This document shows positions 1-17,809 of a stretch of DNA of 19,427 nt, in pieces. The notes under the pieces were generated by a model, which saw only the letters and a program-made list of their open reading frames with translations, had not been told where the DNA came from and ran no database searches. Location of the stretch: the UHGV virus genome UHGV-0123532; one strand, written 5' to 3'. The translations under genes and the position numbers were made by a program. The number at the start of each line of letters is the position of its first letter. Within the stretch, counting starts at the first letter, position 1. Source of the DNA: a virus.

Positions 1-31
1 CTATGATTGGTTAGTAATAGAGTGTATCGGT

Positions 32-313
32 ATGCGATGTGGTTTATTAATGGCAATCTGCCTTTGTTTAGTATCTTTTAGCGGATATGCAGCAACAGGA
101 AAGTCTGATGCTCAGATCAAAAAAGAAATAATTAAAGAATCCATTGAATCTTATCCAGGCAATTGTGCGTGTCCTTATAATCATGCAAGGAATGGTAGTA
201 GATGTGGTGGACGCAGTGCATATAGCCGTAATGGAGGGTATGACGTGGTATGTTATGAGGGTGATGTTACCGATGAAATGATCCGGCAATGGAAGCAGGA
301 GAATGCTGAGTAA
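32..313 (+). CDS. hypothetical small secreted Cys-rich protein (93 aa; alternative start at 50)
   Basis: ORF from track; hydrophobic N-terminal segment (LLMAICLCLVSFSGYAA) followed by a polar region with 5 Cys; AT-rich compared with the prophage backbone; no family recognised by eye. Confidence 0.4.
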   Translation: MRCGLLMAICLCLVSFSGYAATGKSDAQIKKEIIKESIESYPGNCACPYNHARNGSRCGGRSAYSRNGGYDVVCYEGDVTDEMIRQWKQENAE

Positions 314-390
314 TCTCTTTTAACAGGTTTGTTGTGCGAGCATTATGTGCCGTTAACGGTACACTAGCTAGTGATAGTTCCAAAAAGAAA

Positions 391-423
391 ACCCGCAGTT
401 CTTACGCTGCGGGTTTGTTGTTC
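391..423. terminator. bidirectional intrinsic-terminator-like hairpin
   Basis: Stem acccgcag (391-398) pairs with ctgcgggt (407-414), 8-nt loop; A-run 381-390 upstream and T-rich 415-423 downstream, so it can terminate the plus-strand small ORF and the minus-strand hok transcript. Confidence 0.45.
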
Positions 424-501
424 ATGTCTGTGAGATAGGGTGCCACTTCAGCCAACCTTAGCAACCGATTGACGGGGGATTGCTCCCCCGTCGCGGTTTC
501 C

Positions 502-642
502 TTACTGCTTACACTGTAAGAACGCCGCAAACTCCGCTCCCCAGAAGCTCATCCGTATTTCACACAGCGAACCGTGTAGCATCCAGATGATGAGGATTAC
601 CGTCACGCAGAACGTGATGGCCGTAAGCGATTTTTGCGACAT
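502..642 (-). CDS. hok: Hok/Gef-family type I toxin, 46 aa (MSQKSLTAITFCVTVILIIWMLHGSLCEIRMSFWGAEFAAFLQCKQ)
   Basis: Hand-translated minus-strand ORF (below the 60-aa cutoff of the track); ATG at 640-642 preceded by AAGGAG; single TM helix plus conserved SLCE and AAFL-CK motifs, collinear with HokA-type toxins as remembered. Confidence 0.7.
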   Translation of the reverse strand: MSQKSLTAITFCVTVILIIWMLHGSLCEIRMSFWGAEFAAFLQCKQ

Positions 643-671
643 AGCGCTTGCTCCTTTGTTGGAGAGGCGCT
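643..671 (-). promoter_or_regulatory. stem-loop in the hok leader that pairs the Shine-Dalgarno with an upstream anti-SD
   Basis: Minus-strand RNA AGCGC-CUCUCC-AACAAA-GGAG-CAAGCGCU-AUG: outer arms agcgc/gcgcu and inner CUCC/GGAG are complementary; this matches the known translational control logic of hok mRNAs. Confidence 0.4.
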
Positions 672-833
672 AACCTATCACTTGCTTAAGGTAGATATGT
701 TAGGGCCTCGGTTAAACAGAAATGTTTTCCGGGGCCTTTCCACATCTGGCCTTCGGGTATTCCCTCCGACCATCAGCCGAAAGGCACCCGCGCGTAATCT
801 ATCGCTTTTTTGTTACTCCGGCAATTCTGCCTG

Positions 834-1094
834 TTAATTCTGAGGTAAAGGCAAACTCATCTGATTGTTTCCCCTGTGTGAAGCTGGCAGCTCATGCCAC
901 GGGATACCTTCTGAAGAGTGAACGCCGGAGGTGTGTTTTGATGTGAATTTATGGAAAGCTTCCAGTGTTGAGAAGCATACGCCGCATTCCAGGTTGTTAC
1001 ACTGGTAATACTTTTGCCGCACGGTGTTTGAATCATTTTCCGGACGACTGGTGCGGATACGGGCAGATGCGCCACAAAGCGGACAACGGAACAT
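834..1094 (-). CDS. ogr: Ogr/Delta-family zinc-finger late transcription activator
   Basis: MFRCPLCG...YYQCNNLECGVCF has the CxxC...CxxxxC pattern and resembles P2 Ogr (MFHCPLCQH...YHQCQNVNCSATF); RBS AAGGGAGG 6 nt upstream; lies directly downstream of D as in P2. Confidence 0.8.
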   Translation of the reverse strand: MFRCPLCGASARIRTSRPENDSNTVRQKYYQCNNLECGVCFSTLEAFHKFTSKHTSGVHSSEGIPWHELPASHRGNNQMSLPLPQN

Positions 1095-1136
1095 AGCGAC
1101 CTCCCTTAACGTTGTGCTGCTGCTATTCTAAGTTGC

Positions 1137-2246
1137 TCACTCTGTTTCTGCTATCCATTCCGGGATTTTTGCCTCAAGCTCAAGCTGCGTGGTAAAGCCG
1201 CTGTTATCGATGGTGTGCTCGGCTTTTGCAATAATCCAGTCCTGATTATCAATCTCGCTTTTAAATCCTGTTACCGTGCCATGCATTTCGGGGTAGAGTT
1301 CTGCACGACCACATGCCAGCGTGATGGAGAATGATGCGGCTCCGCGTTGTAGCTGCTGCCACTTTGCCGCCGCTGCGCGTCTTGCTGCCTGCTCGTTCTG
1401 ATAAGTCTTGCGTAACACAAACACATTGCCTTCCGCGCCTTCCATATAATCACCTTCGCGGCTGCTGCTTTTCTCCTTTTTGGGTTTTGGCGGTTTGCGG
1501 TGTTTCACGCTGACTTTTTTCTTTTTCCCGTAATTAAGATCAAGCCAGTAAGCGCGTACCCCCGTATACGCTTCGCGGTCAGCAATGCGGAACTGATGGC
1601 GATCGCCACTGCTGCGCGTGATGGCGAACGATGGCAACGGCTGGCCCTGTGCGTTCACGCCACCGCCTGGCATAATGAATAACAGATTACCGCTTTTTAC
1701 CGTGGTGATTGCGCCCAGCATTTCCGCCATGCGCGTAAGGAAGGACATGTCGCTTTCTTCGGTCTGGTCGGCGTGGTCGATTTCGATATCCATCAGCATT
1801 TCGCTGATTTGCGGTTTCAGACCATACCGATGAGCGATGGCGGATACCACACGCTCAACGGTCACATCATGCCAGGACACCTCACGTTTAACGTTAAATT
1901 CATCCCGAAAATCTGCGCTTCTGGCTGAAACAGTCAGCCTGTCCGGCGGTCCTTCGTGAGCGATTTCATCAACAATGTAAGTGCCTTTTTCTGTCAGCGG
2001 TTCTCCTTTCCAGCCAATGAGAACCGTCAGGCGCGCGCCCCGTGGCGGTAGCTGCAACTGACCATCCGCATCATCCAGCGTGATGGTGAGCTGGTCCGCG
2101 TCAAATCCCCGGTTGTCGGTCAGTGACAGGCTCATCAGGCGCTCTGCCACGCCTGACAGCGTTTTACCCTCCGCGAGAATATCAAAATCCGGCATTTTCA
2201 CGGGGTCTGTGCCCTGACTGAGCAATTGCATGGTGGTATCGGTCAT
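1137..2246 (-). CDS. D: P2 gpD-like tail protein (late gene D), about 370 aa
   Basis: Long ORF from track; start chosen at internal ATG 2244-2246 (MTDTTMQLL...) with GGAGGG RBS; identity by resemblance to remembered P2 gpD and by synteny with ogr. Confidence 0.8.
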   Translation of the reverse strand: MTDTTMQLLSQGTDPVKMPDFDILAEGKTLSGVAERLMSLSLTDNRGFDADQLTITLDDADGQLQLPPRGARLTVLIGWKGEPLTEKGTYIVDEIAHEGPPDRLTVSARSADFRDEFNVKREVSWHDVTVERVVSAIAHRYGLKPQISEMLMDIEIDHADQTEESDMSFLTRMAEMLGAITTVKSGNLLFIMPGGGVNAQGQPLPSFAITRSSGDRHQFRIADREAYTGVRAYWLDLNYGKKKKVSVKHRKPPKPKKEKSSSREGDYMEGAEGNVFVLRKTYQNEQAARRAAAAKWQQLQRGAASFSITLACGRAELYPEMHGTVTGFKSEIDNQDWIIAKAEHTIDNSGFTTQLELEAKIPEWIAETE

Positions 2247-2403
2247 CTGTTCCCTCCCTGTGCGGCATGGTCGCATGTGCGTGCGGAGGGGGTTACTGCT
2301 TTTTGTTGTCGCCGGATCGGGAGAACGGCACAGGGGTGAGATTACGCGCGTGGTGGGTGATGATTGTTGCCGAATCATTTAACGGATACAAGGGGCTAAA
2401 GCT

Positions 2404-3291
2404 ATGAGTGAAACTCGTTTTCATGGTGCCCGTGTTACGGAAAATACCGACCTGGTAACAGCGATTAACGATGTTGATTCCAGCGTTATCGGTATCGTGG
2501 CAACGGCGGATGATGCGGACGCGAAGCTGTTCCCGCTGAACAAGCCCACACTGCTGACCCGCGTCAATGACGTGCTGGGAAAATGCAGGACAACGGGGAC
2601 GCTTTATCGTGCGCTTAAGGCCATCGCAGACCAGGTGAGCACAAAGGTGATCGTCGTTCGCGTGGCTGAACACAAAGAAGAAGACGGAAAGACGCAGGAT
2701 CAACTGGTTATCGGTGGTTCTGAATCTGACGGCAGCTATACGGGGATGTATGCGCTGCTTGTTGCAGAGCAGGATGAAAGCATCGGATACCGTCCGCGTA
2801 TTCTGGCCGCGCCGGAGCTGGACACGGAGGCGGTGACAAAATCCCTGTGCGTGATTGCGGGTAAACTGCGCGCGTTTGTGTATGCCTCATGTCACGGCTG
2901 TAACACGATGGCTGAGGTGATTACCTACCGCCAGAAATTCAACGAACGTGAGGTGATGCTCTTATGGCCGGACTTCATCGCCTACAACCCGAAAAGTGGC
3001 AAAAACGAAACGTTCCCCGCGCCTGCCTATGCGTGCGGCCTTCGTGCGTACATTGACCATGAGCAGGGATGGCACAAATCACTGTCCAACGTTCCGGTTA
3101 AAAATGTGCTGGGGATGTCCAGGCATGTGTTCTGGTCGTTGCAGGCCGAAGACAGCGATGCCAACAGCCTCAACAACAAAGAAATCACGACCATTATTCG
3201 TCGCAACGGGTTCCGCTTCTGGGGCAACCGCACACCGGAAACGAACGCCTACATCTTTGAGGTGTATGCCGGAACATCGGCCAGCGTCTGA
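2404..3291 (+). pseudogene. FI: tail sheath protein FI, C-terminally truncated fragment (295 aa of about 396)
   Basis: Clear collinear similarity to P2 FI (TFPLNKP, LRAF-Y, WPDF-A, EQGWHK-LSNV, LIRR-GFRFWGNRT) ending near P2 residue 300; on the opposite strand to D/L/M/N and converging with the L-like ORF. Confidence 0.75.
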
Positions 3292-3608
3292 TGGCCAGCC
3301 GCCTGCTGTTCCTGCTGCCACGCTTCCAGTTCGCGGGTAACGTGAGCCACGGCCCCAGTGGCGGTATGCAGCAGGCGGGAGGTGGTCACGCGGCCCGGCA
3401 GTCGTACCGCCAGACGCAGCTCGCGCAGCACAATATCCGGCCAGAATGCACCTGCTGAAATGCGAGTGTCGCCATCATCGGTATCGGTGATGTCGTCCTC
3501 TGCGGGTCCTGGTTCAGTTCTGGCAACCATACTCATGGAGTTCACTCCTGAAAAAAAATCGGGCGGTGGGTGCGCGGTGTAAACGGTCACGGAGTCAAAC
3601 CGGAACAC
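3249..3608 (-). pseudogene. putative truncated head completion protein (gpL-like), GTG start
   Basis: Assigned only by position (starts 31 bp after the M stop, as L follows M in P2); its last ~14 codons (3249-3291) are antisense to the FI fragment, so the native reading frame is probably cut at the junction; P2 L is about 169 aa. Confidence 0.3.
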
Positions 3609-3639
3609 CGCGCACGCCGCCCGCTGACGGGGTCAGTCG

Positions 3640-4440
3640 TTAACCGCGCTTCGCCTTCTGCGACGCGGTGGTTTTTCGTGTTGCAGGCTTCTGCGTTGTC
3701 TTTTTACTTTTGCTGCTTTCGTCCTGCGTCTGCTGTGCGCTGGCGTCTTCTGGTGCGGCTGCGGAATCGGCTTTTTTCAGGGCGCGGGAAAGGGTTGCAA
3801 TCTCGCGTTTCACACCTGCGTTCGGGTTCAGGTGCATCGCTTCGCGCAGCAGCTTCAGTGATGAGGCCATGTTGTCTGCATCGGTCAGGCCACGACGGGC
3901 AAAGGCACACGCCTTGCATAATTTGGCGCGCACTTCGTCCGGCATGTCCTGGTTGGCGACAATTTCCCAAAGTGTGTCCAGTGGTTCGATAAAGGCGGAT
4001 AAATCCGCGTCGGCATCCGTCCCGGCCTGCGTCAGTACCGGGTTGCAGATTTCTTCGGTCAGTACCGTGGCAGCAGTACGGCCAAAGTTATCCGGCATGA
4101 TGAGGTTGTGACGGACCACATATGCACCAATACGCAGCGCCAGCGGAAGATCGCCGCAGTCAATCGCCCACACCATCAGCGTGGCAATTACTTCGTCCTG
4201 TTGCCCGCCGTCAGTCTCCAGCGTTCCCTCAATCCAGCCGGAAAAGTCCGGCAACAACTCTTTTTTGATGGCGGCTTTCGCGCTTCTGGCCTGTACGCCC
4301 TTTAGCCTGGCCTGTGCCAGACGCAGACGATACAGCACCTCTTCATGCGCGGTACGCGCGGCGTGGTCCACACCTTCATTCGCCCGGCCTGCGCGCTGTG
4401 CCATCACGTTCTGCCAGTGTTGTTGTGCAGGAGTAATCAT
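3640..4440 (-). CDS. M: terminase small (endonuclease) subunit, gpM-like
   Basis: 266-aa ORF with GGAGAG RBS; similar to remembered P2 gpM (PAQ-H, DMPDEVRAKL, basic Lys/Arg-rich tail); synteny N-M. Confidence 0.8.
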   Translation of the reverse strand: MITPAQQHWQNVMAQRAGRANEGVDHAARTAHEEVLYRLRLAQARLKGVQARSAKAAIKKELLPDFSGWIEGTLETDGGQQDEVIATLMVWAIDCGDLPLALRIGAYVVRHNLIMPDNFGRTAATVLTEEICNPVLTQAGTDADADLSAFIEPLDTLWEIVANQDMPDEVRAKLCKACAFARRGLTDADNMASSLKLLREAMHLNPNAGVKREIATLSRALKKADSAAAPEDASAQQTQDESSKSKKTTQKPATRKTTASQKAKRG

Positions 4441-4457
4441 TTTTTCTCTCCGTTACA

Positions 4458-4476
4458 GGCGGGCATGATGCCCGCC
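4458..4476. other. perfect palindrome/hairpin between N and M (ggcgggcat-g-atgcccgcc)
   Basis: Seen directly; GC-rich 9-bp arms; no U-tract on the minus strand, so more likely an mRNA processing or stability element than a strong terminator. Confidence 0.35.
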
Positions 4477-4485
4477 GTGAGTTGA

Positions 4486-5538
4486 TTAGCTGTCGGCGAA
4501 CTTCAGGCCAGTGATCATCGCGCACTTGCCATAGTCTTCAACGACATAAGCGTCATTGATGGACTGGTAGGTGGCGATGCGGTTGTATTCCGGCTCGTCT
4601 TTCATCAGGCGACGCATTGAACCTTTCTGCCAGTAAATCGACAGGTTGTTGAACGAGGTGATAAGCATCGTTGCATCCGGGAAGAACGGCGCAAGGAACA
4701 CGCCCAGCCCGCCAATGGTGCGCGATGACAGGATGAGCTGCCCGGCAAGTAATTCCGCATTGGGATTCTGGCCGCTGATGCTGTTCAGCACGGGCAGACG
4801 CAGCGAGTTAAACAGGTTGCGCCCCATAATCACCGCGAGGTCGTCAGCTTCCTTGTGCCATTCATCCAGCAGGGATGAGCGCGCATCCTGTACCAGAGCA
4901 TCGGCATTCGCATACTTACCCGCGTGCGCCACAGTGTTGTCCATGTTGCGGGAGGTCAGCGTCACGTCATTCATTACGCGCTCGCTGGCATCGGTTCTGA
5001 TGTGCTCCAGCCAGCCCACGTTAACGTCCTGAAGCAGCTTGTTGGTGTGAAAATCAGACTCGTAGGCGTGGGATGTGCCGTTAAAGCCAATCATGATGCG
5101 ATCAAGCGCTACCTGCCGGGCGATCTGTGTACTGATACGGGACTGAAAATCGCTGTGGGCCGCCCAGGTATCAAGCTGTGGGTACGAAATAAAGGTATCG
5201 TAGTTCACCTGTTCGCACTGGTACTGACGAGACTTCATATCGATCACGTTATTCGGGTTACGGCGTTTGATGCCGTCATAACTGCTATTCGTGCGCGCAA
5301 TTGGCCCGGTGGTGTCCAGGAGGATTTTTTCGCCTTTCTGGTCGGTCACGCCGATCACGTTAATTCTTTTCGTAAATTCGGTACTTTCCTTTGAGGCGTT
5401 TTCAAAACGCTGCTGCACCGCGGGTTCCACGGTAAATCGCGATACCAGTGCAGATACCGGGATATTGTTAAGCGACGCCTGCTGCGCCATATAGCAACCC
5501 AGCTTGTTGCGGGTAATATCTGACATCACCAGATTCAT
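4486..5538 (-). CDS. N: major capsid protein, gpN-like
   Basis: 350-aa ORF; AGGAG RBS 10 nt before ATG at 5536-5538; collinear similarity to P2 gpN (FTVEP, IGFNG, GWL, LSIYW, YVVEDY). Confidence 0.9.
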   Translation of the reverse strand: MNLVMSDITRNKLGCYMAQQASLNNIPVSALVSRFTVEPAVQQRFENASKESTEFTKRINVIGVTDQKGEKILLDTTGPIARTNSSYDGIKRRNPNNVIDMKSRQYQCEQVNYDTFISYPQLDTWAAHSDFQSRISTQIARQVALDRIMIGFNGTSHAYESDFHTNKLLQDVNVGWLEHIRTDASERVMNDVTLTSRNMDNTVAHAGKYANADALVQDARSSLLDEWHKEADDLAVIMGRNLFNSLRLPVLNSISGQNPNAELLAGQLILSSRTIGGLGVFLAPFFPDATMLITSFNNLSIYWQKGSMRRLMKDEPEYNRIATYQSINDAYVVEDYGKCAMITGLKFADS

Positions 5539-5561
5539 AAAAAATTTGCTCCTTTGTCTTA

Positions 5562-5938
5562 TCAGAAGTCAGCCAGCTGGTCGGAGGCTGCGCCCGTTGC
5601 GGTGAAGCGGTTCTGCGGATCGCCGTCCTGTGTGCGCAGTTTTTCCTTCAATGCTGTCAGCTCTGTGGTCAGTGACGTGATTTTCTGGCGGTCCTGCTGA
5701 TGGCGGGTTCCGTAATATCTTCCGTACTCAGCGCGGTGACATCGCCCATTGCGGAAAATTCGCTTGACGGGCATGGCGAGAGATAGTGCTCAACGTTCAC
5801 GCGGGCAGCGTAAACATCCGGGTTGAAGTTCTCGGCGGCTTCACGCAGATGTACCTGGCTGATTTCGCGGCCATCAACAGTTGATCCGGAGACAGCCACG
5901 CGAAACTTTTTGCGGGATGTCTTTTTTTCATTAGCCAT
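5562..5938 (-). pseudogene. O: capsid scaffold gpO-like, internally deleted and frameshifted
   Basis: N-terminal piece (MANEKKTSRKKFRVAVSGSTVDGREISQVHLREAAENFNPDVYAARVNVEHY..GDV) in one frame and C-terminal piece (TELTALKEKL...ATGAASDQLADF) in another; total locus about 377 bp against about 855 bp for P2 O. Confidence 0.6.
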
Positions 5939-6092
5939 AGTTTTTGCCCCTCTGACTGGTTCTTCAGTCATGATGGCAAAGCGTAACAGGCTGATAAAAA
6001 GGGCTTTTGTTGTAAGAAAACGGCCAGAACAGGGGGTTAAGGAGAACGGTTTCGCGCGCGGGTAATCTTCCTGTAATTACTCAGGGGGAGCA
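5939..6092. promoter_or_regulatory. divergent late-promoter region between O and P
   Basis: By synteny with P2 (divergent P and O operon promoters); no convincing TGT-N12-ACA Ogr dyad found by eye, so assigned by position only. Confidence 0.35.
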
Positions 6093-7844
6093 ATGATTCA
6101 GGACGCTTTTGTGCGCCAGCGTGCGCGGCAACTTTACTGGCAGGGTTATCCGCCCGCAGAAATATCACGTCTGATGGGAATAAACCCGAACACGATTTAT
6201 GCGTGGAAAAAACGCGACCAGTGGGATGAAACGCCACCCGTGCAGCGTGTCACGCAGTCCATCGATGCGCGCCTCATCCAGCTTACTGAAAAACAGAATA
6301 AAACAGGCGGTGACTTTAAGGAAATTGACCTGCTGACCCGGCAGCTTAAAAAAATGCATGATGGCCAGCCGGATGCGACGGCCACAGGAAAGAAAGGCCG
6401 GGCGAAAAAACTCAAAAATCATTTCACGCCGGAACAGATTGCCGCACTGCGGGAAAAAATCATCAGCAGGCTGGAGTGGCATCAGCGGGGCTGGTTTGAC
6501 TCCCTGACCCTTTGCAGGGAAGCCGGGATACGTAACAGGATGATCCTGAAATCCCGACAGATTGGCGCGACCTGGTATTTTGCACAGGAAGCACTGCTGA
6601 TGGCGCTGCGTGACGATGTGGCGCAACCTTACCAGCGTAACCAGATTTTTTTGTCTGCGTCGCGTCGTCAGGCGTTCCAGTTTAAAAGCATTATTCAGAA
6701 GGCTGCGGCTGAAGTTGATGTGGAGCTGAAAGGGGGCGATAAAATCATCCTCTCCAACGGCGCAGAGCTGCATTTTCTCGGCACTTCTGCTGCGTCGGCG
6801 CAGTCCTATACGGGCAATTTTTATTTTGATGAATTTTTCTGGGTCAGTCGCTTTGCTGAACTGCGCAAGGTGGCTGGCGCTATGGCAACCCTCAGCGGAT
6901 TGCGGCGCACCTACTTCTCCACGCCATCCACCGAAACGCACGAAGCATACGCCTACTGGAACGGCGACCGCTGGAACGAGAAAAAGGCCACACATAAACG
7001 CCAGCGTTTTTCTGTGGACTGGAAAACACTGCATAACGGGCTTATCTGCCCTGACCGGACGTGGCGGCAAATTGTCACGCTGGAAGATGTGGTTAATCAC
7101 GGCTGGAAACACACCGATATCGACGAAATTCGTGATGAAAACACCGAAGACGAGTTCCTCAATCTCTATATGTGTGAGTTTGTCCGCGAAGGGGAATCGG
7201 CATTTAACCTGAATATCCTGATTGGCTGCGGTGTTGACGGATACGACGACTGGAAAGACTGGAAACCTTTTGCTCCCCGCCCGATGGGGAATCGTCCGGT
7301 ATGGATTGGGTATGACGCAAACGGCAGCAGTGGCAACGGCGACAGCGGCGCTGTGTCCGTGGTGGTTCCTCCGGCTGTTCCTGGTGGCCGTTTTCGAACG
7401 GTGGAGACGCGACGCGTTCAGGGGCTGGAGTTTGAAGAACAGGCCAGAGTCATTGAAGATTTCACGTATCGCTACAACGTGGAACACATCGGCATTGATG
7501 TGACGGGCGGGAACGGGGAGGCTGTTTATCAGATAGTGAAACGGTTTTTCCCTGCCGCTATTCCGTACACCTTCACGCTGTCATCAAAACGGTCGCTTGT
7601 ACTGAAAATGCTGCAAATAATGCGTGCCGGGCGGTGGGAATACGATCGCGCCGAACGCGAGCTGGTCGCGGCCTTTAACGCCGTGCGTAAGGTGAAAACA
7701 CCGGGCGGCTTTATCACTTACGAAACGGACCGCGCGAGGGGGATCAGCCACGGCGACCTTGCGTGGGCAACCATGCTTGCTGTCATTAACGAACCAATTG
7801 GCGGCGAAGGAGAAAACGAGCGTTTCACGGTTATGGAGTTCTGA
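6093..7844 (+). CDS. P: terminase large (ATPase) subunit, gpP-like
   Basis: 583-aa ORF, length and position match P2 gpP; stop overlaps the Q start (TGATG at 7842-7846). Confidence 0.85.
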   Translation: MIQDAFVRQRARQLYWQGYPPAEISRLMGINPNTIYAWKKRDQWDETPPVQRVTQSIDARLIQLTEKQNKTGGDFKEIDLLTRQLKKMHDGQPDATATGKKGRAKKLKNHFTPEQIAALREKIISRLEWHQRGWFDSLTLCREAGIRNRMILKSRQIGATWYFAQEALLMALRDDVAQPYQRNQIFLSASRRQAFQFKSIIQKAAAEVDVELKGGDKIILSNGAELHFLGTSAASAQSYTGNFYFDEFFWVSRFAELRKVAGAMATLSGLRRTYFSTPSTETHEAYAYWNGDRWNEKKATHKRQRFSVDWKTLHNGLICPDRTWRQIVTLEDVVNHGWKHTDIDEIRDENTEDEFLNLYMCEFVREGESAFNLNILIGCGVDGYDDWKDWKPFAPRPMGNRPVWIGYDANGSSGNGDSGAVSVVVPPAVPGGRFRTVETRRVQGLEFEEQARVIEDFTYRYNVEHIGIDVTGGNGEAVYQIVKRFFPAAIPYTFTLSSKRSLVLKMLQIMRAGRWEYDRAERELVAAFNAVRKVKTPGGFITYETDRARGISHGDLAWATMLAVINEPIGGEGENERFTVMEF

Positions 7845-8890
7845 TGAGCAGAAAAAATAAAAAAGTGCGCATGAGTTCACGCATTGATCTCGCTGATGCA
7901 CTCAGGAAAGAATCGTCGCTCAGTGCATTCACTTTTGATGGTCCTTATCGCCTGACCGGGCATGATTTGCTGGACAATATGTACTGTGCTGATAACGGGC
8001 GGTGGTATGAAACCCCGGTGGACTGGTACGGTCTGGCAAGAGCCGCCCGGCAAACGTCCTGGCATCAGTCTGCGCTTTACTTTAAGCGCAATGTATTGCT
8101 CGGTTGCTACATCCCGCACCCGCTGCTTTCCCGGCAGGATTTCTCGGCACTGGCGCTGGACTGGTTTGTGTTCGGTAACGCATTCCTTGAGCTTCGAAGC
8201 AATATGCTCGGCGAACCGCTTAAATTACGGCACGCCCTGGCGAAATACATACGACGCGGAAGCGATCTTGAATCATGGTGGTATGTGCAGGATGGCAAGG
8301 ATGCGTTCCAGTTTCGCCCTGGCAAAGTGTGCCACCTGATGAATCCTGACATTAACCAGGAAATCTACGGCATGCCGGAATATCTCGGCGCATTACTCTC
8401 GGCCAGCCTGTCTCATTCGGCGGACATGTTCAGAAAACTGTATTACGACAACGGATCCCACGCCGGGTGCATCATCTACATCGGTGCAGCGCAGGTAAAC
8501 CGCGAAAGCATGGACTCTCTGAAAGAAACGCTACAGGGTGCACGTGGTGGCGGTGCGTTTAAAAACGTGCTCATTCATGCGCCCAACGGGGGCAAAGAGG
8601 GGGTGCAAATTTTGCCGTTCCAGCAGATCACCGCAAAGGATGAGTTCATGAATGTTAAGGCGGCATCCCGTGATGATGTGCTGGCTGCGCACCGCGTTCC
8701 GCCGCAACTAATGGGGGCGATGCCGGGTGAAAAAAGTGCGTTTGGTGATGTGGAGAAGGCCGCGCGGGTTTACGCAATTAACGAGCTGATGCCCATCATG
8801 GAGGCCATGAAGCACATCAATGACTGGCTTGGCGAAGAGGTGATCCGCTTTAACCCTTACGCACTGTTAGATACCCAGCTCACATCCTGA
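7844..8890 (+). CDS. Q: portal (capsid vertex) protein, gpQ-like
   Basis: 348-aa ORF translationally coupled to P; length and position match P2 gpQ. Confidence 0.85.
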   Translation: MSRKNKKVRMSSRIDLADALRKESSLSAFTFDGPYRLTGHDLLDNMYCADNGRWYETPVDWYGLARAARQTSWHQSALYFKRNVLLGCYIPHPLLSRQDFSALALDWFVFGNAFLELRSNMLGEPLKLRHALAKYIRRGSDLESWWYVQDGKDAFQFRPGKVCHLMNPDINQEIYGMPEYLGALLSASLSHSADMFRKLYYDNGSHAGCIIYIGAAQVNRESMDSLKETLQGARGGGAFKNVLIHAPNGGKEGVQILPFQQITAKDEFMNVKAASRDDVLAAHRVPPQLMGAMPGEKSAFGDVEKAARVYAINELMPIMEAMKHINDWLGEEVIRFNPYALLDTQLTS

Positions 8891-8917
8891 CGCGCTTCGC
8901 TTGTCTGCTGCTTCGCC

Positions 8918-8940
8918 GGGGCATAAAAAATTTATGCCCC
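8918..8940. terminator. hairpin downstream of Q (ggggcataaa-aaa-tttatgcccc)
   Basis: Perfect 10-bp stem with 3-nt loop starting 28 bp after the Q stop; no clean U-tract, so a weak or factor-assisted terminator. Confidence 0.4.
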
Positions 8941-9220
8941 GACTCTCCAGCTCCTGTATCAGTCAGATAATTTCACGACGCTTTACAGTATATCGCCACC
9001 ATCGACGGTCAGACTCTTACGCAATCCCACCGCGTTGACTGCATGTTCTTCGCCGCCTCAGTGCGATTTTGACGGCCTTACCTTTCACCCCATCAAATCA
9101 GAATCCCTCACGTATTTTTCACGCTCAGCGTGAGAAATACAGCCATTCTGTTGTGTCTCTGCGACATCGTTCAGGGAATGCTATTTACCCCCTGAAACGC
9201 GGGCTGTTCCCCCGTCACCT

Positions 9221-9272
9221 GCGCGCAGAAAAAACGCGTTTTTTTGTGCATGCACGGATCCTTGACGGATCC
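9221..9272. repeat. dense cluster of short palindromes
   Basis: GCGCGC (9221-9226), AAAAAACGCGTTTTTT (9229-9244), GTGCATGCAC (9246-9255), GGATCC twice (9256-9261, 9267-9272), all seen directly. Confidence 0.6.
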
Positions 9273-9315
9273 AGCCGCCACGCGGGCCGGAAGGGTAAAA
9301 AGTCGTTCAAAAAAA

Positions 9316-9345
9316 TTGTGCAAATTTGTGCACTATTGTGCAAAC
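9316..9345. repeat. three tandem copies of TTGTGCA at exact 10-bp period
   Basis: tTGTGCAaat / tTGTGCActa / tTGTGCAaac at 9316, 9326, 9336; helical-turn phasing suggests a protein-binding array. Confidence 0.55.
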
Positions 9346-9581
9346 CGAACGGAGTGCTTATTTATAGAAAAATTGAGCCTATGTATACGACGTTGCTTAT
9401 AAATACATCCCTGACTGTTATGTGAAAATATGCAAAGAAAATTACATGCTATGGAGATGAGAGTTATAACGACCTTTTCTACTTATTTGTAAAAGAGGTC
9501 GTTATGTAAAAGTTAAATTATTTTTTACTCTTGATATGTGTAAAAAATATAGCTTTGATGTTTATATCCTATTAGAATATA

Positions 9582-11279
9582 TTATTTATCCTCTTTAATG
9601 ATTTTGTTATAGTCAAAATCCCAAATTTTTCTGTCAATGCCGTTTGTTGGTGTAACCCGGTAGAATAAGGATCGTAATCCATTGTAAAAATACTGGAGAG
9701 ATTTCTGATTTTCTGGTTTGTCTAACCAGTTTCTTGTAATCATTCTAAAGAATTCAATATGCTGATTGAATATTTTCTTATTTAATTTTCTTCTTAAACC
9801 GGATGTAGACTCATGGTTGTCTTTTCTTTTCTGAATTTCAGTTTCAATTGATTGTAATTGAGGACGTATCTTGAGTAAGTATAACTCTTTCGAAAAACCA
9901 TTGTTAATTATATCCTGATTTTCCCAGAAGGAAGAGTCGTCGGTATTATAAAGGTGCTCACAATGCTCAAATATCAATTGTTCTGGAGCTTTTTCACCCG
10001 GCAGTGATATAATTCCTCTCTGATCCTCAGGGCTGTGATCTCCATCAAGAATACAAATTGATTTTAACGAGGTTTCCTTAAGATGAGAATCATTAAAAAT
10101 AGTTTTTAAATTGTCTGCACCAATGAAACAATCAATTAAGTGAAATGAATTACTAACTATAGCAAAATTTGGATATTTGCTTATCCAATAACCAAGTATT
10201 TCATTAAATAAAAAGCGAGCTTCTTCATCTTCCGTGAAAACTGGTATCTTGTTCCTTGTGTATATCTCATCCTTTGTTTGTGTTTTCAGATACATTGTTA
10301 TTTTTAATATATCAGGATTATCCAAAAGCAGAGCCTTTGTAATATTGTTAATTAGATAGACAACATGGTATTTTTTATGAAAAGCATATTCTAGCAATGT
10401 CAGACTGTGCGTTGTGAAAAATACTTGAATCTTATAATCTTTTGCGTATTGATAAATTTTATCTAATAATCTTATCTGTAAAGAAGGATGTAAAGTGGCA
10501 TCAAATTCATCTATTAACAGAATGCTTTCTTTTTGATCAGTGGATTGAATAAGTGATTCAAAATAATACCTAAGGCTAACTAATGCCTTGATTATAATGA
10601 ATATATTGTCTTCCCCGGATGATATGGTATTAGAATCAATTGCTGGGTTATCGGTATCAAATAATGGGCCAGCTTTAAAATCTCCGATATTGTTTGATTC
10701 TATATTTATAATATTAATGCCCAAAAGTTCATTATATATTTTCGATATATAACCAACATACTCTTCTGGTAGGTTTAACGGAATTTTTGTAAGGGCGTCG
10801 TCTTTAGTTTCACCAATTGGGAATAGTCGCGATAATCCAAGATATAAAACTGGTTTAGCTGGAAGTGATTGTTTTTCTTTTCCGCGTGGGTATACTGGTT
10901 TGATAGCATACCGTTGCGCTTCGTCTGGATTTTTTGAGTTGTGCTTTCTGAAGTCTAGTGTGCTATGATCCAAATAGTTAATAGAAAATAACACACCTTT
11001 TGTTCCCTCTGCCGGATCGGTGTAATTTTTTGATTCCCTAACAATTGCTTCCATTTTGGGGTTGGCTATTTTGTTTATAGATTTTATAACTCTAACACAA
11101 TTACTATTTGAATAATTTTGTGATCGAGATGGTGGCATTTGGAAACCATTGCTAATTAAATGAAGCAATGTTGTCTTACATGTCCCATTGGTTCCTGATA
11201 TTATATTGATGTCTTCATTGAATGAGAAGTCAATATCTATCAGTTTCTTAAATTTTTTAAAACTAATTTCTTTAATCAT
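9582..11279 (-). CDS. OLD-family ABC-type ATPase with C-terminal Toprim-like nuclease region (565 aa)
   Basis: N-terminal P-loop SGTNGTCKTTLL; Walker B/D-loop LLIDEFDATLHP and H-loop FFTTHS typical of AAA_15/AAA_21 OLD-like ATPases; downstream conserved acidic motifs VFTEDEE and ILDGDHS spaced like the Toprim Glu and DxD; AGGA RBS; AT-rich. Confidence 0.6.
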   Translation of the reverse strand: MIKEISFKKFKKLIDIDFSFNEDINIISGTNGTCKTTLLHLISNGFQMPPSRSQNYSNSNCVRVIKSINKIANPKMEAIVRESKNYTDPAEGTKGVLFSINYLDHSTLDFRKHNSKNPDEAQRYAIKPVYPRGKEKQSLPAKPVLYLGLSRLFPIGETKDDALTKIPLNLPEEYVGYISKIYNELLGINIINIESNNIGDFKAGPLFDTDNPAIDSNTISSGEDNIFIIIKALVSLRYYFESLIQSTDQKESILLIDEFDATLHPSLQIRLLDKIYQYAKDYKIQVFFTTHSLTLLEYAFHKKYHVVYLINNITKALLLDNPDILKITMYLKTQTKDEIYTRNKIPVFTEDEEARFLFNEILGYWISKYPNFAIVSNSFHLIDCFIGADNLKTIFNDSHLKETSLKSICILDGDHSPEDQRGIISLPGEKAPEQLIFEHCEHLYNTDDSSFWENQDIINNGFSKELYLLKIRPQLQSIETEIQKRKDNHESTSGLRRKLNKKIFNQHIEFFRMITRNWLDKPENQKSLQYFYNGLRSLFYRVTPTNGIDRKIWDFDYNKIIKEDK

Positions 11280-11296
11280 CTATATCATCCTTAAAT

Positions 11297-12142
11297 TTAA
11301 ATGTCAGGGATTTTTATACCATGATTATAAATGATAATTTCTAGACCTTTTTTCTTATCTTGTGCAGTATAATTAAGCGTATAATCAGTCATATTGAATT
11401 CATGATATATGCTTTTTATTTCAGGCACATTGTCATAAGACACAACCCAAGGTAGTTGAATTTCCCGTAGTGTATTAGCGATTTTTACATGATCATCATG
11501 TTTATAAAAATTTCTATATAACTCTGCTCCTTTAACATAATAAGGTGGATCAAGATATATTAGACTATTTTGGGGTAGCAATGCTTTTTGGTGTAGCAGA
11601 AAATCTACAGCATCAAAATTCGATACGTAAATTTTCTCCTTATATGCACCAATTAGTTCAATCCTTTTAATTAACTCTTTTTTGTTGAATCTTGCATCTA
11701 ACTTCCATGGTCCTTTTTGTTCTTTCCCTCCAATAACGCCAGCCTTAAGTATTCCTGAACGGTTTGTTCTATTTAAAAAGAAAGTAGATAATGCGACTTC
11801 AAGCATACTATATTTATCATTGTTTAGGAGTATCTCCTTTTGAGTATGCCAATTTTCAATAGTCACAGGAACTTCATCAATCATTTCACATAACAGATCG
11901 TTATGATTAACCACTGCAAACCAAAAAGAATAAAGGGCAGGATCAATATCATTTATGAAGATATTTTCAACAAGACCGTTAAGGAGCAAACCTAATGCTA
12001 CACCGGCTCCACCTGCATAAGGTTCAGCATAACATCCACCAATGAGATCATTGTTGCGGAGTATTTGTTCAATATGTGGCAAGAATTTTGCCTTACCTCC
12101 CGGATAACGAAGAGGGGTTCTAAAATGAGAAGGCTTTGTCAT
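11297..12142 (-). CDS. Dam-like (D12 class) N6-adenine DNA methyltransferase (281 aa)
   Basis: LRYPGGK N-terminal motif, AdoMet motif EPYAGGAGV, catalytic DPPY; stop lies 17 bp upstream of the ATPase start, same strand. Confidence 0.85.
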   Translation of the reverse strand: MTKPSHFRTPLRYPGGKAKFLPHIEQILRNNDLIGGCYAEPYAGGAGVALGLLLNGLVENIFINDIDPALYSFWFAVVNHNDLLCEMIDEVPVTIENWHTQKEILLNNDKYSMLEVALSTFFLNRTNRSGILKAGVIGGKEQKGPWKLDARFNKKELIKRIELIGAYKEKIYVSNFDAVDFLLHQKALLPQNSLIYLDPPYYVKGAELYRNFYKHDDHVKIANTLREIQLPWVVSYDNVPEIKSIYHEFNMTDYTLNYTAQDKKKGLEIIIYNHGIKIPDI

Positions 12143-12229
12143 CCACGATTTTCTCAGTAAAAAATAAACATAATCTTAACATGGCACTTGAGTTTTCCCG
12201 ATAAAAAACATCGTCGCCGTCCATAGATA

Positions 12230-12247
12230 TTTGCATAGTTATGCAAA
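12230..12247 (-). promoter_or_regulatory. inverted repeat TTTGCATA-gt-TATGCAAA in the leader of the methyltransferase operon
   Basis: Perfect 8-bp arms seen directly; located between the predicted promoter and the MTase start, an operator-like or 5' UTR hairpin position. Confidence 0.4.
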
Positions 12248-12275
12248 AAATCCAGTTTTCAATGAATTAAGGGGA

Positions 12276-12305
12276 ATTATATCAATTGCATTCTATTCAA
12301 CACAA
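12276..12305 (-). promoter_or_regulatory. candidate sigma70 promoter for the MTase-OLD operon
   Basis: Minus strand TTGTGT-N18-TATAAT (perfect -10 at 12276-12281, -35 at 12300-12305), immediately after the gene A stop. Confidence 0.35.
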
Positions 12306-12327
12306 TATTCGGTTAGCGATTCACATC

Positions 12328-15153
12328 TCATCCCTCATGATGGAAAAGGCATATCCAACTTTGTAATTGTTTTTTCTCATCATCATTTTGATTACTAAAG
12401 TGCTGTTTGCCTCTCTTTTGGAGCAAAGTAGCCTTGCGGCGGGCGCGTTCAGTGGTTTCATTGATTCTTTGTGCGTGCTCTGCGTCACGGATGGCGCGCA
12501 GCATGTCAGAAAGCACGGTAACGGGGGTTTTCATGGTGTTCTGGTCCTGCTGAAGTGTGGATGCCAGACGTGCGGCGGCTTCGGGGTCTGATGCCCCCAG
12601 TTGTTCCAGATAGCTGGCGACCGGGTTATGACGGATCTCTGTGCTGCTTACGCCGTGATTACGGCTCAGGCGCTGCCAGAGCTGCGTAATTCGGCTGGCC
12701 GGGCGGGTATCCGGTTTGCGTACAATTTCAAATCCCTGCGGTGCAATGATGCTGCCGTCAACGTACAGGCTGCCGCCCCGTAACAGGTGCTGCATCTGCT
12801 GTTCACCGATATGCAGGCCGAGAGATTCGGCAGATTCCCGCCATTCTTTAGCGAGTAATTCGTGGTTATCAGGCAAAGGCCGCTGCTGTTTGCGGCTCTG
12901 TGTCCAGCTCTGCATTTCATCACTGCTGTTTTTTGCCTGTTTGTCACGAAGCGAACGCATCAGCGCCCGGCGTTCGTGCCGTTTCAGTGAGCGCATCCAT
13001 TCGTTCACTTCAACGCCGTCAGGAAGCTGCGGCCACGGTGCTGGCCGTTCTTTCGACTGTTCTGTCCCGCTGTTGCCTGTTTCCTGTACACGGGGACAGT
13101 TATTGCCACGAGTCCAAGGGGCGGCAGGGCCGCCCTGAAGGTCAAAACCATTTTCGCGGGCGCTGTCTTCCGCTTCCGGTTTGCGTCTTACCAGCTTCCA
13201 GTTATCCGGATGCGTGCACACACGGGAGGATTCCCCGATGAGTGGTGACCAGATCCCGTAAATCTGTACGCTCTGTTCGCCGTAATCGTTCAGCTCATCG
13301 GCGAGGTCGTAGGCGGTGCGAATCAGGTAGTCTTTGCGTGGAACAAGTACGCCGCCCTGTTTCTCAATGTAGGTGGCAAAACATCCGGCATCAGCGGCAG
13401 CAAGAACCGCATCCATTGCGTCATCCTTCAGCCGTTGCGGGCCTTCCGGGTTGCGTGCCATCTGGCTGGCAAGGCGACGCAGTTCACGCCACACCTGACG
13501 GGAGGGGATGCCAAAGAACTGGAACTGGCGGACCCGGTGAAGGCGCGCCCAGCCAATGGCGCGTTCCACGCTCTCGGTCATTGATTTTCCGGTTTCGTGG
13601 TCAACGCGTGGTTTGCCTGTTTTCGGGTCGATGCCATCCACGGCGCGGCTGTCCAGGTTTTTTCCGATGTAGGTGGCGATGTAGCTGGTTGGCGTGCCTT
13701 TTGAGCCGTCGACATACTCCGCCTTAAAGCGCGGAGTAATATCATCGCCCAGCTCGTGACGATCTTCCTGAATGGCAATATCGCGGGTGTGGGACACAAT
13801 GGTGTCGATTTCTTCCGGATGAGCAAAGACCATCATATGCCAGTGCACGGTGCCGTCATGGTGAGGCTCCACCGTGCGGATGCCATACCAGCGCAGGCCG
13901 TCGCGGTTCAGTTTCTTGCGGACCGCCGCAAAAAACGTGTTAACCAGGTAATCGCTGGAGTCGCGCATGGTGGCCCCGTTCCATTTGGGATTCGGATGAC
14001 CGTTCTCTGTTGTAGCGTGGTATTTTGACGGGCAGGTGACAGTCAGAAACACCGCTTTGTCGCCACGGGCTTCGGCCAGAAGTTCCAGCCCCTTCATGGT
14101 GGCCATCATTTCTGCCTTACGGTGAACCGGGTTACTTACTCCCGCGTAATACACTGTCTCGAGATCAATCGTGAACCCGTCTTCGTTTTCCAGCATGAAA
14201 CTTTTCAGGAAATCGCGTGTTTTCTCGCGCTGTGCGCGAAACTCGCTTAACGCGTCCTGGCTCAGATAGGGCGATGTTTTTCTGGAAACCAGACAGGCGG
14301 CGCGGAGTTGTTCTTCTCTCCACTCGCAACGTAACAGCCACAGTTTGCGTTTCCACCATTCCGCACAGGTCAGGCGAAGGATTGCGCCCGGCAGCAGCTC
14401 CGTGTCCGGTTCGTTCCTCCGGTCTTTGTCTGTTGTCAGTGCGTCATAATGTGGAGGCATGGCGTGCAGGTGTAACGCCATGCGGGCCAGCATCTGATAC
14501 GCCTTCAGCGTTACATCCATGGTCAGTTCGCCATCGGTCGCGCCAAAGCCATCGCAGAGTTTTTCGAAGGTGCTGCTGAACATCGCCGCCGTCATGGTGG
14601 CCAGCGTCTGTATCTGGTGTTTGTTGAGCTGCGGCAGGTAAAGCAAATCGTCCAGGCGTTCGCGTCCGGCAAGGGAGCGATAACCCTGTGTCAGCCAGCG
14701 GTGATCGGTGCGCTCCAGACGTTCGAATATTTTGCGCAGGTTTCCGCGCGCGTAGCGTTCAGCCTGCCAGCTCTTTTTGCCTTTCTGACGATCGGCTTCC
14801 TGTTTTTTGCGCAGGAAGGAGAGGTGGCGAATAAGCGGATCGCGCAGATAGGACGGCAGCAGGCGCAGCGAGGCCATGGCTTCATCCACCGCACCGCGTG
14901 CCTGTTTTCTGGCGTCTCCTGCCAGTGTGATGGTTTTGTCCTGTTTTTCCTGTGCGTCCAGGCTTTTATTAATCAGGTTGCCCAGCGGCGTTGCGGAGAA
15001 CGCCGCATCAGCCATTTCCTGGCGGCGCTCGTTCTCTACCCGGTAGGCATCCAGCCAGGAGGAAAGCGCGGATTCAGGAGCGGGGATCCCCGTTCCTTCA
15101 CGCCCCACTGCGTGGCGCGGTTGTTGCCAGTCCCTGATGTACTCTGCCGTCAT
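12328..15153 (-). CDS. A: replication initiation endonuclease, gpA-like (rolling-circle HUH type), 941 aa
   Basis: HUH-type motif TVHWHMMVF and paired tyrosines YIATYIGK characteristic of P2 A-family proteins; position after the early operon. Confidence 0.85.
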   Translation of the reverse strand: MTAEYIRDWQQPRHAVGREGTGIPAPESALSSWLDAYRVENERRQEMADAAFSATPLGNLINKSLDAQEKQDKTITLAGDARKQARGAVDEAMASLRLLPSYLRDPLIRHLSFLRKKQEADRQKGKKSWQAERYARGNLRKIFERLERTDHRWLTQGYRSLAGRERLDDLLYLPQLNKHQIQTLATMTAAMFSSTFEKLCDGFGATDGELTMDVTLKAYQMLARMALHLHAMPPHYDALTTDKDRRNEPDTELLPGAILRLTCAEWWKRKLWLLRCEWREEQLRAACLVSRKTSPYLSQDALSEFRAQREKTRDFLKSFMLENEDGFTIDLETVYYAGVSNPVHRKAEMMATMKGLELLAEARGDKAVFLTVTCPSKYHATTENGHPNPKWNGATMRDSSDYLVNTFFAAVRKKLNRDGLRWYGIRTVEPHHDGTVHWHMMVFAHPEEIDTIVSHTRDIAIQEDRHELGDDITPRFKAEYVDGSKGTPTSYIATYIGKNLDSRAVDGIDPKTGKPRVDHETGKSMTESVERAIGWARLHRVRQFQFFGIPSRQVWRELRRLASQMARNPEGPQRLKDDAMDAVLAAADAGCFATYIEKQGGVLVPRKDYLIRTAYDLADELNDYGEQSVQIYGIWSPLIGESSRVCTHPDNWKLVRRKPEAEDSARENGFDLQGGPAAPWTRGNNCPRVQETGNSGTEQSKERPAPWPQLPDGVEVNEWMRSLKRHERRALMRSLRDKQAKNSSDEMQSWTQSRKQQRPLPDNHELLAKEWRESAESLGLHIGEQQMQHLLRGGSLYVDGSIIAPQGFEIVRKPDTRPASRITQLWQRLSRNHGVSSTEIRHNPVASYLEQLGASDPEAAARLASTLQQDQNTMKTPVTVLSDMLRAIRDAEHAQRINETTERARRKATLLQKRGKQHFSNQNDDEKKQLQSWICLFHHEG

Positions 15154-15159
15154 AGTGAT

Positions 15160-15525
15160 TTACTTCGTCATGCCATTCAGGGTGTCGCGGCAGGCTGTAG
15201 CCAGCCGCTGAATTTCCAGCACGGTGTCTTCTGTGTCGGCATGGCGATGTGTGATGCGGATGCTGTCGGCAATCACATCGACGATTGCAGAGGATGGGCG
15301 CTGGTAAATGCCAATAACGGACGGGGTGCCACCTTCAATGCGGTAAAGCCTGTAATTTCCCTCGTGGCTGTCAATCATGTAGCGACCATCAATAACAATC
15401 TTTCCGTCAGCGAGCTGCGGTACAGGCAGGGATTTCTGGTACATGTCATAACGATCACGCACGCGAGCGGCAAGATCACGTTCTGTGTTGAGCAGGTATT
15501 CAAGAAAGTCGTTGGCGAGAATCAT
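15160..15525 (-). CDS. hypothetical early-operon protein (121 aa)
   Basis: ORF with AAGAGGA RBS; stop 6 nt before the gene A start. Confidence 0.55.
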   Translation of the reverse strand: MILANDFLEYLLNTERDLAARVRDRYDMYQKSLPVPQLADGKIVIDGRYMIDSHEGNYRLYRIEGGTPSVIGIYQRPSSAIVDVIADSIRITHRHADTEDTVLEIQRLATACRDTLNGMTK

Positions 15526-15597
15526 TGCGGCAATCCTCTTGTTACAGATGTGCGAAGGCCTCCCGCCGCAAGGTGCAGGAAAGGCCCGGAACAGGAA

Positions 15598-15828
15598 TTA
15601 ATGGAGTTTGTTTTGCTGCTGGATGAGCTGTTGAAGCTCGTGCAGATCATCCGCCAGATAGCTGAAAACAGAGGCGGAATAAATGTTTGATAGTGCGTGG
15701 CTGCGCTCATGCAGCATATTGATGTGCATGATTTGCGCGACGCGTGATGCGCGGGAAAGTCTGCGGTTGATTTCAGTCTGGATGTGACGACGCTCCGCGA
15801 TAGCGCGGTGTGGTTTGCGGTTTGCCAT
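15598..15828 (-). CDS. hypothetical early-operon protein (76 aa)
   Basis: ORF with AAGGGG RBS embedded in the 3' arm of an upstream stem. Confidence 0.5.
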   Translation of the reverse strand: MANRKPHRAIAERRHIQTEINRRLSRASRVAQIMHINMLHERSHALSNIYSASVFSYLADDLHELQQLIQQQNKLH

Positions 15829-15838
15829 GGTGTGGCCC

Positions 15839-16059
15839 CTTGTGTAGTAAGTTGTGAAAACTCACCATCCAGAGCTGCGAAACTGTGGGTGGCGAGACGT
15901 ACGAGGTTCGCAGTACCGGCTACACAAGAACCCGGCCCGACCGAAGTCGGCCCCGTACGCCCCGCCATAATTCTGACGCGAAAAAAACGTGGCAATACAG
16001 TACGCACAAAAAAACCGCTGGCGCGGTTGTGCGCTTGTGTAGTCAGCAGGCTGCGAAAC
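15839..16059. repeat. three copies of a bipartite motif CTTGTGTAG ... CTGCGAA(A)C in alternating orientation
   Basis: Forward copies at 15839-15847/15875-15883 and 16034-16042/16051-16059; reverse-complement copy at 15906-15913/15920-15928; all seen directly. Confidence 0.6.
16003..16028 (-). terminator. intrinsic-terminator-like hairpin plus U-tract on the minus strand inside the early operon
   Basis: Minus-strand RNA AACCGC-GCCA-GCGGUU followed by a U-run (plus-strand A-run 16008-16014). Confidence 0.4.
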
Positions 16060-16150
16060 CCGACACCCGTTTTGTGAGGTGCAGCGGAAATGTAACCTGA
16101 CTGATTGCGGCATGGCAAGCGGTTTTTTTGTGTGTGCATGTTCTGGTTTC

Positions 16151-16450
16151 TTACTGGTTCAGAAAAAAATCAAAAACCTTGTCAATGCGTTGCAGCAGCT
16201 CTTGCTGTATTGCTTCCGGTGTTTCCGGTTCGCCTGGCGCCTTCAACGTCGCGCAGAAATCAGCGATTTCATGATGGAGCGTCAGGCGAATGGCAGGAGC
16301 CGTGGTTCTGGCGTGCTCCAGCTCATCCAGCAGTGCCAGCACGGCAGACGGCGAGAGCATTGCGCGAAATGCCAGTAATTTTTGAGGCGTTGCCATTCGT
16401 TGCAGGGCAAATGCCAGTTCGCGTAGCTTCTGGTGGTTGATGGTGCTCAT
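16151..16450 (-). CDS. hypothetical early-operon protein (99 aa)
   Basis: ORF from track; start overlaps the upstream gene stop by 4 nt. Confidence 0.5.
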   Translation of the reverse strand: MSTINHQKLRELAFALQRMATPQKLLAFRAMLSPSAVLALLDELEHARTTAPAIRLTLHHEIADFCATLKAPGEPETPEAIQQELLQRIDKVFDFFLNQ

Positions 16451-16713
16451 GTTCTGGCTTCCTTCAGTAGCTGGTTAAACATGTGAGTAAGTGGATTGCT
16501 ACACCCGAACGGCATCGGGTTTACGTGGTAAGAAGCCTGGCCTCCAGTTTTGCGAGCGCGACCACCTGTGCTGCGGTTTGTTCTGATGACTAAGCCGCTG
16601 CGCCAAAGTCGGCGTAACTCAGCATTAATAGCTGTGGTTGGGGTGTTCAGTGCTGCGGCGATTTCTCCGCCGCTACAACCCGGATGTGTAGTGATGTAGT
16701 CCAGAATGGTCAT
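16447..16713 (-). CDS. putative winged-helix DNA-binding protein (88 aa)
   Basis: ILDYI...GCSGGEIAAAL...LRRLWRSGLV resembles winged-HTH recognition regions; 4-nt overlaps with both neighbours. Confidence 0.45.
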   Translation of the reverse strand: MTILDYITTHPGCSGGEIAAALNTPTTAINAELRRLWRSGLVIRTNRSTGGRARKTGGQASYHVNPMPFGCSNPLTHMFNQLLKEART

Positions 16714-16913
16714 TTGCGTGGCTCCTGTACCTGTCGGATAAGATTCACCCGCGCCACGTTGGTGGCGCAGAAGTAAGTGCCGTCAGTGAGGTAGATGTGG
16801 TGTGCATCCTTTTCCGAACGATGTTTGTCGATAGTGGTAATCAGGCGTTCGTCGACCTCGTATTCGCGCCCTCTGGAGGTAAAGCGAATGATGGGAAAAT
16901 GCTTAATTGCCAT
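16710..16913 (-). CDS. hypothetical early-operon protein (67 aa)
   Basis: ORF from track in operon context. Confidence 0.45.
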   Translation of the reverse strand: MAIKHFPIIRFTSRGREYEVDERLITTIDKHRSEKDAHHIYLTDGTYFCATNVARVNLIRQVQEPRK

Positions 16914-16936
16914 TGCGCCCCCTTTGTCCAGTAACC

Positions 16937-17353
16937 CTATGCGTGAAATACGGCACGTTGCGCGTCATCAATGAATACAGCTTGAGATCGTTCTATCAGG
17001 CGGAGATTTGTCAGAAGCTCTGACTCTTTTGTGTGGTAAGGCGTTATCAGGTAGTTGCCGTGCAGTTCGGCAATAATGGTGTATTGCGTCATTATTGCCG
17101 AACCAAGAATGTAAATGCGGCGTCCAATGCTGGACGGATTCATGGCTGCAACTGTTGACTGTGTTTTAAGAGTGTCGATTTCTTTGCCCTGTTCCTCAAT
17201 AATTTTGGCTGCTTCAGAGGTGGCTATTGCGATGGTCAGTGCGTAAAGCGCTGCCATATGTTGATTATCTTTCTGGGCTGCCCTGGACAGCTTGTCTTGC
17301 TCTGCTGACACTATTTTTAATGTATTGATAATATTTTTTTCTTTTGCGTTCAT
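16937..17353 (-). CDS. hypothetical early-operon protein (138 aa), possibly a gpB analogue
   Basis: ORF with GGAG RBS; assignment to B is positional only. Confidence 0.45.
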   Translation of the reverse strand: MNAKEKNIINTLKIVSAEQDKLSRAAQKDNQHMAALYALTIAIATSEAAKIIEEQGKEIDTLKTQSTVAAMNPSSIGRRIYILGSAIMTQYTIIAELHGNYLITPYHTKESELLTNLRLIERSQAVFIDDAQRAVFHA

Positions 17354-17798: not shown

Positions 17799-17809
17799 CG
17801 CAACGCCCT

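Follow-up and report, generated by a model that had tools for sequence, protein, structure and literature searches.

Capsid scaffold protein gpO in P2-like phages

In phage P2, gpO is a protein of 284 aa (NP_046759.1) whose residues 1-141 form a protease acting on N and on itself, and presumably also on Q (PMC7552001; PMC6893505), and the S107A mutant of this protein is protease-deficient (PMC7552001). Residues 195-284 constitute the internal scaffold, an absolute requirement for the assembly of P2 procapsids (PMC7552001), and residues 142-194 may mediate the incorporation of the portal (PMC7552001; PMC6893505). The protein is essential, as viable P2 and P4 virions need it (PMC7552001; PMC6893505).

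The stretch of DNA analysed here, which we call the window, comprises 19,427 nt (UHGV virus genome UHGV-0123532). The gpO of phage P88 (YP_009113068.1, annotated as 'head maturation protease') and its counterpart in E. coli 4/0 (WP_001262681.1) are encoded by the same gene as the one found in the window, placed between the divergent genes P and N. The DNA retained at the O locus is 98.5-99.8% identical to the gpO gene of P88 and of P88-like prophages; compared with the P88 and E. coli 4/0 genes, however, the window copy is without 460 internal nucleotides and is frameshifted. P2 gpO is a homologue with 38% identity to the intact P88-type protein, with which it has PF05929 and the operon position in common. 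It is intact and functional, whereas the window copy is without the serine and the region equivalent to about residues 75-237 of P2.

From comparison of the sequences we conclude that positions 5562-5938 of the window (minus strand, 377 nt) are a pseudogene of the gpO gene, which encodes the capsid scaffold and head maturation serine protease, in a P88-like E. coli prophage (Xuanwuvirus, Peduoviridae; P2 family). The assignment is given by the alignments to P88 and E. coli 4/0 and by matches to PF05929 in two frames. We hold it to be very nearly certain that the locus was inactivated by a single spontaneous internal deletion of 460 bp, as one step in ordinary cryptic-prophage decay.

Reading frames of the O remnant

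Two overlapping ORFs are found on the minus strand in different frames, one at 5669-5971 (100 aa) and the other at 5562-5774 (70 aa). The 100-aa ORF matches positions 2-70 of the 268-position profile PF05929 (Phage_GPO) with an E-value of 1.8e-25 and 90.5 bits (cut-off 33.6 bits), and the 70-aa ORF matches positions 221-267 with an E-value of 1e-4 and 22.5 bits, which lies below that cut-off. Profile positions 71-220 had no counterpart at the O locus in the Pfam search of both ORFs. Judging by these matches, the descent of the remnant from the GPO family (PF05929) is not in doubt. A continuous ORF over the whole profile (about 270-285 aa) is absent, the profile being divided between two pieces in different frames. 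In NCBIfam no model matches gpO, the intact 278-aa protein included.

The first-pass annotation had described the locus as a scaffold gene O with an internal deletion and a frameshift, with its N- and C-terminal pieces in different frames and with less than half the length of the P2 gene, and all of this is borne out: at 377 nt the remnant is 44% as long as P2 O (855 nt), the gene having 837 nt in both P88 and E. coli 4/0. The same annotation had given the locus as 5562-5971. The ORFs are as it described them, but the end at 5971 probably does not hold: this position is an in-frame ATG upstream of the ATG at 5938 (MANEKK...), and the latter is most likely the true start codon of O, because P88, E. 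coli 4/0 and the pseudogene of E. coli AST46 all have their annotated start at the equivalent position.

The N-terminal fragment of gpO (5708-5938, minus strand) contains the native codons 1-77 (MANEKK...STEDITE) and retains H51. It is followed, 3' of the deletion junction, by an out-of-frame stretch (5669-5707, minus strand) in which 12 aberrant codons, PAISRTARKSRH, lead to a TGA stop at 5669-5671. The C-terminal fragment (5562-5705, minus strand) contains the native codons 232-278 (RHQQDRQK...DQLADF; R232-F278) together with the native stop; its 47 codons, shifted to the -1 frame with respect to the N-terminal fragment, are unreachable from the O start.

The 460-nt deletion and its junction

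A megablast search of window positions 5400-6150 against phage genomes gave 16 records with 91-98.5% identity, all of them P88-like (Xuanwuvirus, Peduoviridae), and in all 16 the 751-nt query spreads across ~1,210 nt in two pieces. The alignment to P88 has a single gap of 460 nt between window positions 5707 and 5708 (P88 locus L001, 1808-2267). The closest intact prophage copy is that of E. coli 4/0 (gpO of 837 nt, 278 aa), to which the alignment shows one mismatch in 451 aligned bases besides the same 460-nt gap. As both flanks of the gap are 98-99.8% identical at the DNA level to full-length genes, a chance resemblance is ruled out.

The deleted stretch corresponds to codons 78-230 plus one base. 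Since 460 equals 3x153+1 and is not a multiple of 3, the reading frame shifts. Correcting a single base does not yield a full-length O, 460 nt being missing.

The junction was placed at 5706-5710 by the alignments to P88 and E. coli 4/0, and reads 5'-GTCCTGCTGATGGCGGGTTCCGTAAT-3'. The two deletion ends share an exact microhomology of 2 nt, TT on the plus strand at 5708-5709 (AA in the coding sense), which sits within an imperfect GGAA/GGAAA repeat. The short microhomology, exact over just these 2 bp, suggests that the segment may have been lost by replication slippage or else by illegitimate recombination. There is nothing unusual in the mechanism or in the organisation of this lesion, as decay of prophages by deletion is commonplace.

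Product of the remnant

Owing to the frameshift, a ribosome that begins at the O start codon would make a product of 89 aa, composed of 77 native and 12 aberrant residues. When P2, P88, E. coli 4/0 and the fragments of the window are aligned, H48 of P2 corresponds to H51, which is kept, and S107 of P2 corresponds to S109, which is deleted. H48 of P2 presumably has a role in catalysis. The deleted codons 78-230 are equivalent to about P2 75-237 and cover the remainder of the protease domain with its catalytic serine (S109), then the middle region, and the C-terminal scaffolding domain over its first half. A C-terminal scaffolding domain in frame with the N terminus is thus absent, just its last 47 codons being left in the -1 frame.

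On account of these losses we infer that the 89-aa product would be neither a protease nor a scaffold. By analogy with P2, whose gpO is just 38% identical to the P88-type protein, the element would be unable to assemble T=7 procapsids or to process N, O and Q. The defect in head assembly that the first-pass annotation had expected agrees with what P2 genetics would predict for such a product.

Neighbouring head genes

The major capsid gene N (4486-5538, minus strand) lies directly downstream of the O remnant and is full length, encoding 350 aa with a match to PF05125 (E 1e-115). It has a ribosome-binding site of its own, AAGGAG, 23 nt past the native O stop, and therefore the O deletion need not be polar. 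Strong Pfam matches were also obtained for the small terminase M (3640-4440, minus strand, 266 aa), for the full-length large terminase P (6093-7844, plus strand, 583 aa) and for the full-length portal Q (7844-8890, plus strand, 348 aa). The lengths of N, M, P and Q are equal to those in P88. The gene order, with Q and P on the plus strand and O', N, M and L' on the minus strand, is that of P88 and P2, in which O is the first gene of the O-N-M-L operon and is divergent from P-Q.

The region between the divergent genes O and P (5939-6092) is assigned as the late-promoter region by its position and by analogy with the P2 annotation, and it is intact with respect to P88 except for a SNP at 5997. 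A scan of positions 5450-6150 for sigma-70 promoters gave no match, which is expected for Ogr-activated late promoters and decides nothing, and in the O/P intergenic region no exact match to TGT-N12-ACA was found.

Occurrence of the junction

A query spanning the flanks of the deletion (window 5300-6100) was matched over at least 80% of its length by 1,071 of 5,426 complete E. coli genomes. Among the best 40 listed of these 1,071 matches, 39 span ~1,261 bp in two pieces, and the remaining one, E. coli AST46, has the 801-bp span of the window. When 60 nt with the junction in their middle were used as a probe, under an E-value limit that excludes half-matches, only one of the 5,426 complete genomes gave a hit, that of AST46. 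Within the assembly index, one contig alone yields the exact product of the 100-aa ORF. An exact-pattern scan for the 26-nt junction gave no match in the GTDB representative genomes, which hold one genome per species and are uninformative on the strain diversity of E. coli, nor in the JGI metagenome contigs, in a scanned set evidently without Ga0250139_00721.

These results bear on the reading that the 89-aa N-terminal fragment or the whole remnant has been kept for a function, for example a dominant-negative effect on the capsids of superinfecting P2- or P88-like phages, or that the gene represents a naturally short family. It could be said for this reading that the late-promoter region, the O start codon and the genes N, M, P and Q are all intact, that the allele has lasted long enough to occur in two genomes, and that the element bears defence-like cargo, so that a benefit to the host may keep the element. 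We nevertheless consider it very improbable. A naturally short scaffold family, which the first-pass annotation had named as a possible refutation, is ruled out by the presence of the junction in one of 5,426 complete genomes and by the full-length span in the 39 other listed genomes, and against a retained function stand as well the single contig that yields the 100-aa product and the missing matches among GTDB representatives and metagenome contigs. Moreover, the C-terminal codons, although out of frame, differ from E. coli 4/0 at one base, which indicates a recent accident and not an evolved short gene. Clonal descent accounts for the sharing of the allele by these two genomes, which are near-identical.

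Even less credence can be given to the more specific proposal that the 89-aa stub, which still has an intact late promoter in front of it, is made when a superinfecting P2- or P88-like phage supplies Ogr and then poisons procapsid assembly or portal incorporation in that phage. If this were true, the crippled prophage would be an assembly-interference defence beside its methylase/ATPase cargo.

The same allele in E. coli AST46

The deletion that we favour is also found outside the window. The O junction is identical in the complete chromosome of E. coli AST46 (NZ_AP043639.1; human, Japan), which was independently sequenced, and in the JGI contig 3300056508|Ga0250139_00721, to which positions 1-15971 of the window are 100% identical and from which the window evidently derives. 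In AST46 the RefSeq/PGAP annotation labels the gene (ACZ453_RS10280) as 'GPO family capsid scaffolding protein, frameshifted', positions 14263-14639 of the AST46 locus (L002) being the equivalent of window 5562-5938. The identical O allele is, in consequence of this label, already known as a frameshifted pseudogene.

Over 14.8 kb (window 4607-19427) AST46 differs from the window by two SNPs, at 5997 and 12271, with no gaps, and window 1-4611 is 100% identical in AST46. Both SNPs are intergenic. The one at 5997, which is an A in the window and a C in AST46 and P88, falls within the late-promoter region between the divergent genes O and P, some 59 nt upstream of the point where O starts.

While the two gpO pseudogenes are the same allele with the same junction, AST46 differs in that its gene N is also interrupted, being split by a Mu-like prophage flanked by a 5-bp duplication, AGGCG (window 4607-4611), of which the window represents the empty site. 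This Mu-like prophage has about 33 kb by the coordinates of the record and encodes a transposase, an AAA ATPase, Gam, Mor and others (L002 1-13307). The comparison of both genomes indicates that the O-deletion allele is inherited and older than the insertion of the Mu-like prophage into N of AST46.

The occurrence in AST46 also decides the question of an assembly or sequencing artefact, in which a full-length O would have had 460 bp collapsed or dropped by the assembler, a concern that may be raised since the matching JGI contig comes from a sample of uncertain quality. The two SNPs and the Mu-like insertion show that AST46 is another genome, separately assembled, and yet it has the identical junction; furthermore, the deletion ends share a microhomology of 2 bp only, and no long repeat flanks the missing segment that could cause a collapse. 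Because two independent assemblies carry the same junction, an artefact, which the first-pass annotation had recommended be checked, can be excluded with little hesitation. The least credible of the alternatives to a deletion that inactivated the gene is a programmed -1 ribosomal frameshift joining the pieces at the junction into a short scaffold of about 124-125 aa: the two frames do overlap by 39 nt, with the C-terminal fragment shifted by -1 against the N-terminal one, but no X_XXY_YYZ slippery heptamer exists at or after the junction (ACG GAA CCC GCC ATC), intact relatives have no need of a frameshift, and the fused product would still be without the catalytic serine and about half of the scaffolding domain.

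A second deletion, from gpL to the tail sheath

A second deletion junction is located at 3267-3275, where the middle of gpL is fused to the middle of the tail sheath at a shared TGCCGGAAC and where about 14.9 kb were lost. This sequence is an exact match to the L side of P88 and agrees at 7 of 9 positions with the sheath side of P88. Matches to phages resume at window position 3267, and matches to E. coli sheath/D sequences stop at 3275.

The gene for the head completion protein gpL (3249-3536/3608, minus strand) is left with 95 of 164 aa, covering the first 65 of 139 profile positions. Adjoining it, the tail-sheath ORF (2404-3291, plus strand) is left with 295 of 394 aa, its C terminus being gone. 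The orientation of the sheath is normal, because the sheath operon is naturally divergent from D in P88. The part of the P88 map from about 17,435 to about 32,305 is missing from the window, which includes the C terminus of gpL, X, the holin, the endolysin, the baseplate, the fibres, the invertase, U, the tape measure, E/E', the tube and the C terminus of the sheath. The element therefore does not have all the head, lysis, baseplate, fibre and tail genes of a functional P88-like (Xuanwuvirus) prophage.

The gpL-to-sheath deletion is also present in AST46, and so both deletions co-occur in the two genomes. It is a separate event, independent of the O deletion. The view that decay of the structural module has independent evidence, put forward in the first-pass annotation, finds support in this second lesion.

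Other features of the element

Between the portal gene Q and the replication gene A, where P88 has parM/partition genes, the window carries a cargo of two genes (9582-12142, minus strand). The first encodes a Dam-type methyltransferase of 281 aa that matches the PADLOC model PD-Lambda-5_B (E 8.7e-122), and the second an AAA_15/AAA_21 ATPase of 565 aa that has only generic PtuA/AriA/GajA-like matches (about 1e-16). No match to PD-Lambda-5_A was seen among the best 25 of 103 PADLOC hits. From these matches the methyltransferase/ATPase cargo may be a variant of a defence system.

Searches with Rfam identified a C4 antisense RNA (83 bits) and the Hfq-binding sRNA isrK (62 bits), at 15885-15972 and 16008-16082 on the minus strand. 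Both RNAs are placed upstream of a 76-aa ORF for a 'derepression protein' (15598-15828), and the C4 RNA, isrK and this ORF together look like an immunity module of the c4/ant type. A 205-aa ORF at 15522-16139, called in the JGI contig, overlaps both RNAs, has no family match and is probably spurious.

At the left end of the window (positions 1-1100) the gene ogr is found at 834-1094 (minus strand, 86 aa; Ogr_Delta in the JGI call), and the RefSeq annotation of matching E. coli genomes places a gene for a toxin of the Hok/Gef family in the same stretch. The late activator encoded by ogr has thus been retained though most of the late genes were lost.

Significance

The element is a cryptic prophage that is predicted to be unable to build heads or tails, and its genes should not be counted as those of an active phage. 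The importance of the finding lies mainly in correct annotation. In addition, the lesions provide a small dated series of decay within one prophage lineage, in which the O and gpL-to-sheath deletions are common to both genomes and the Mu-like insertion into gene N of AST46 came later.
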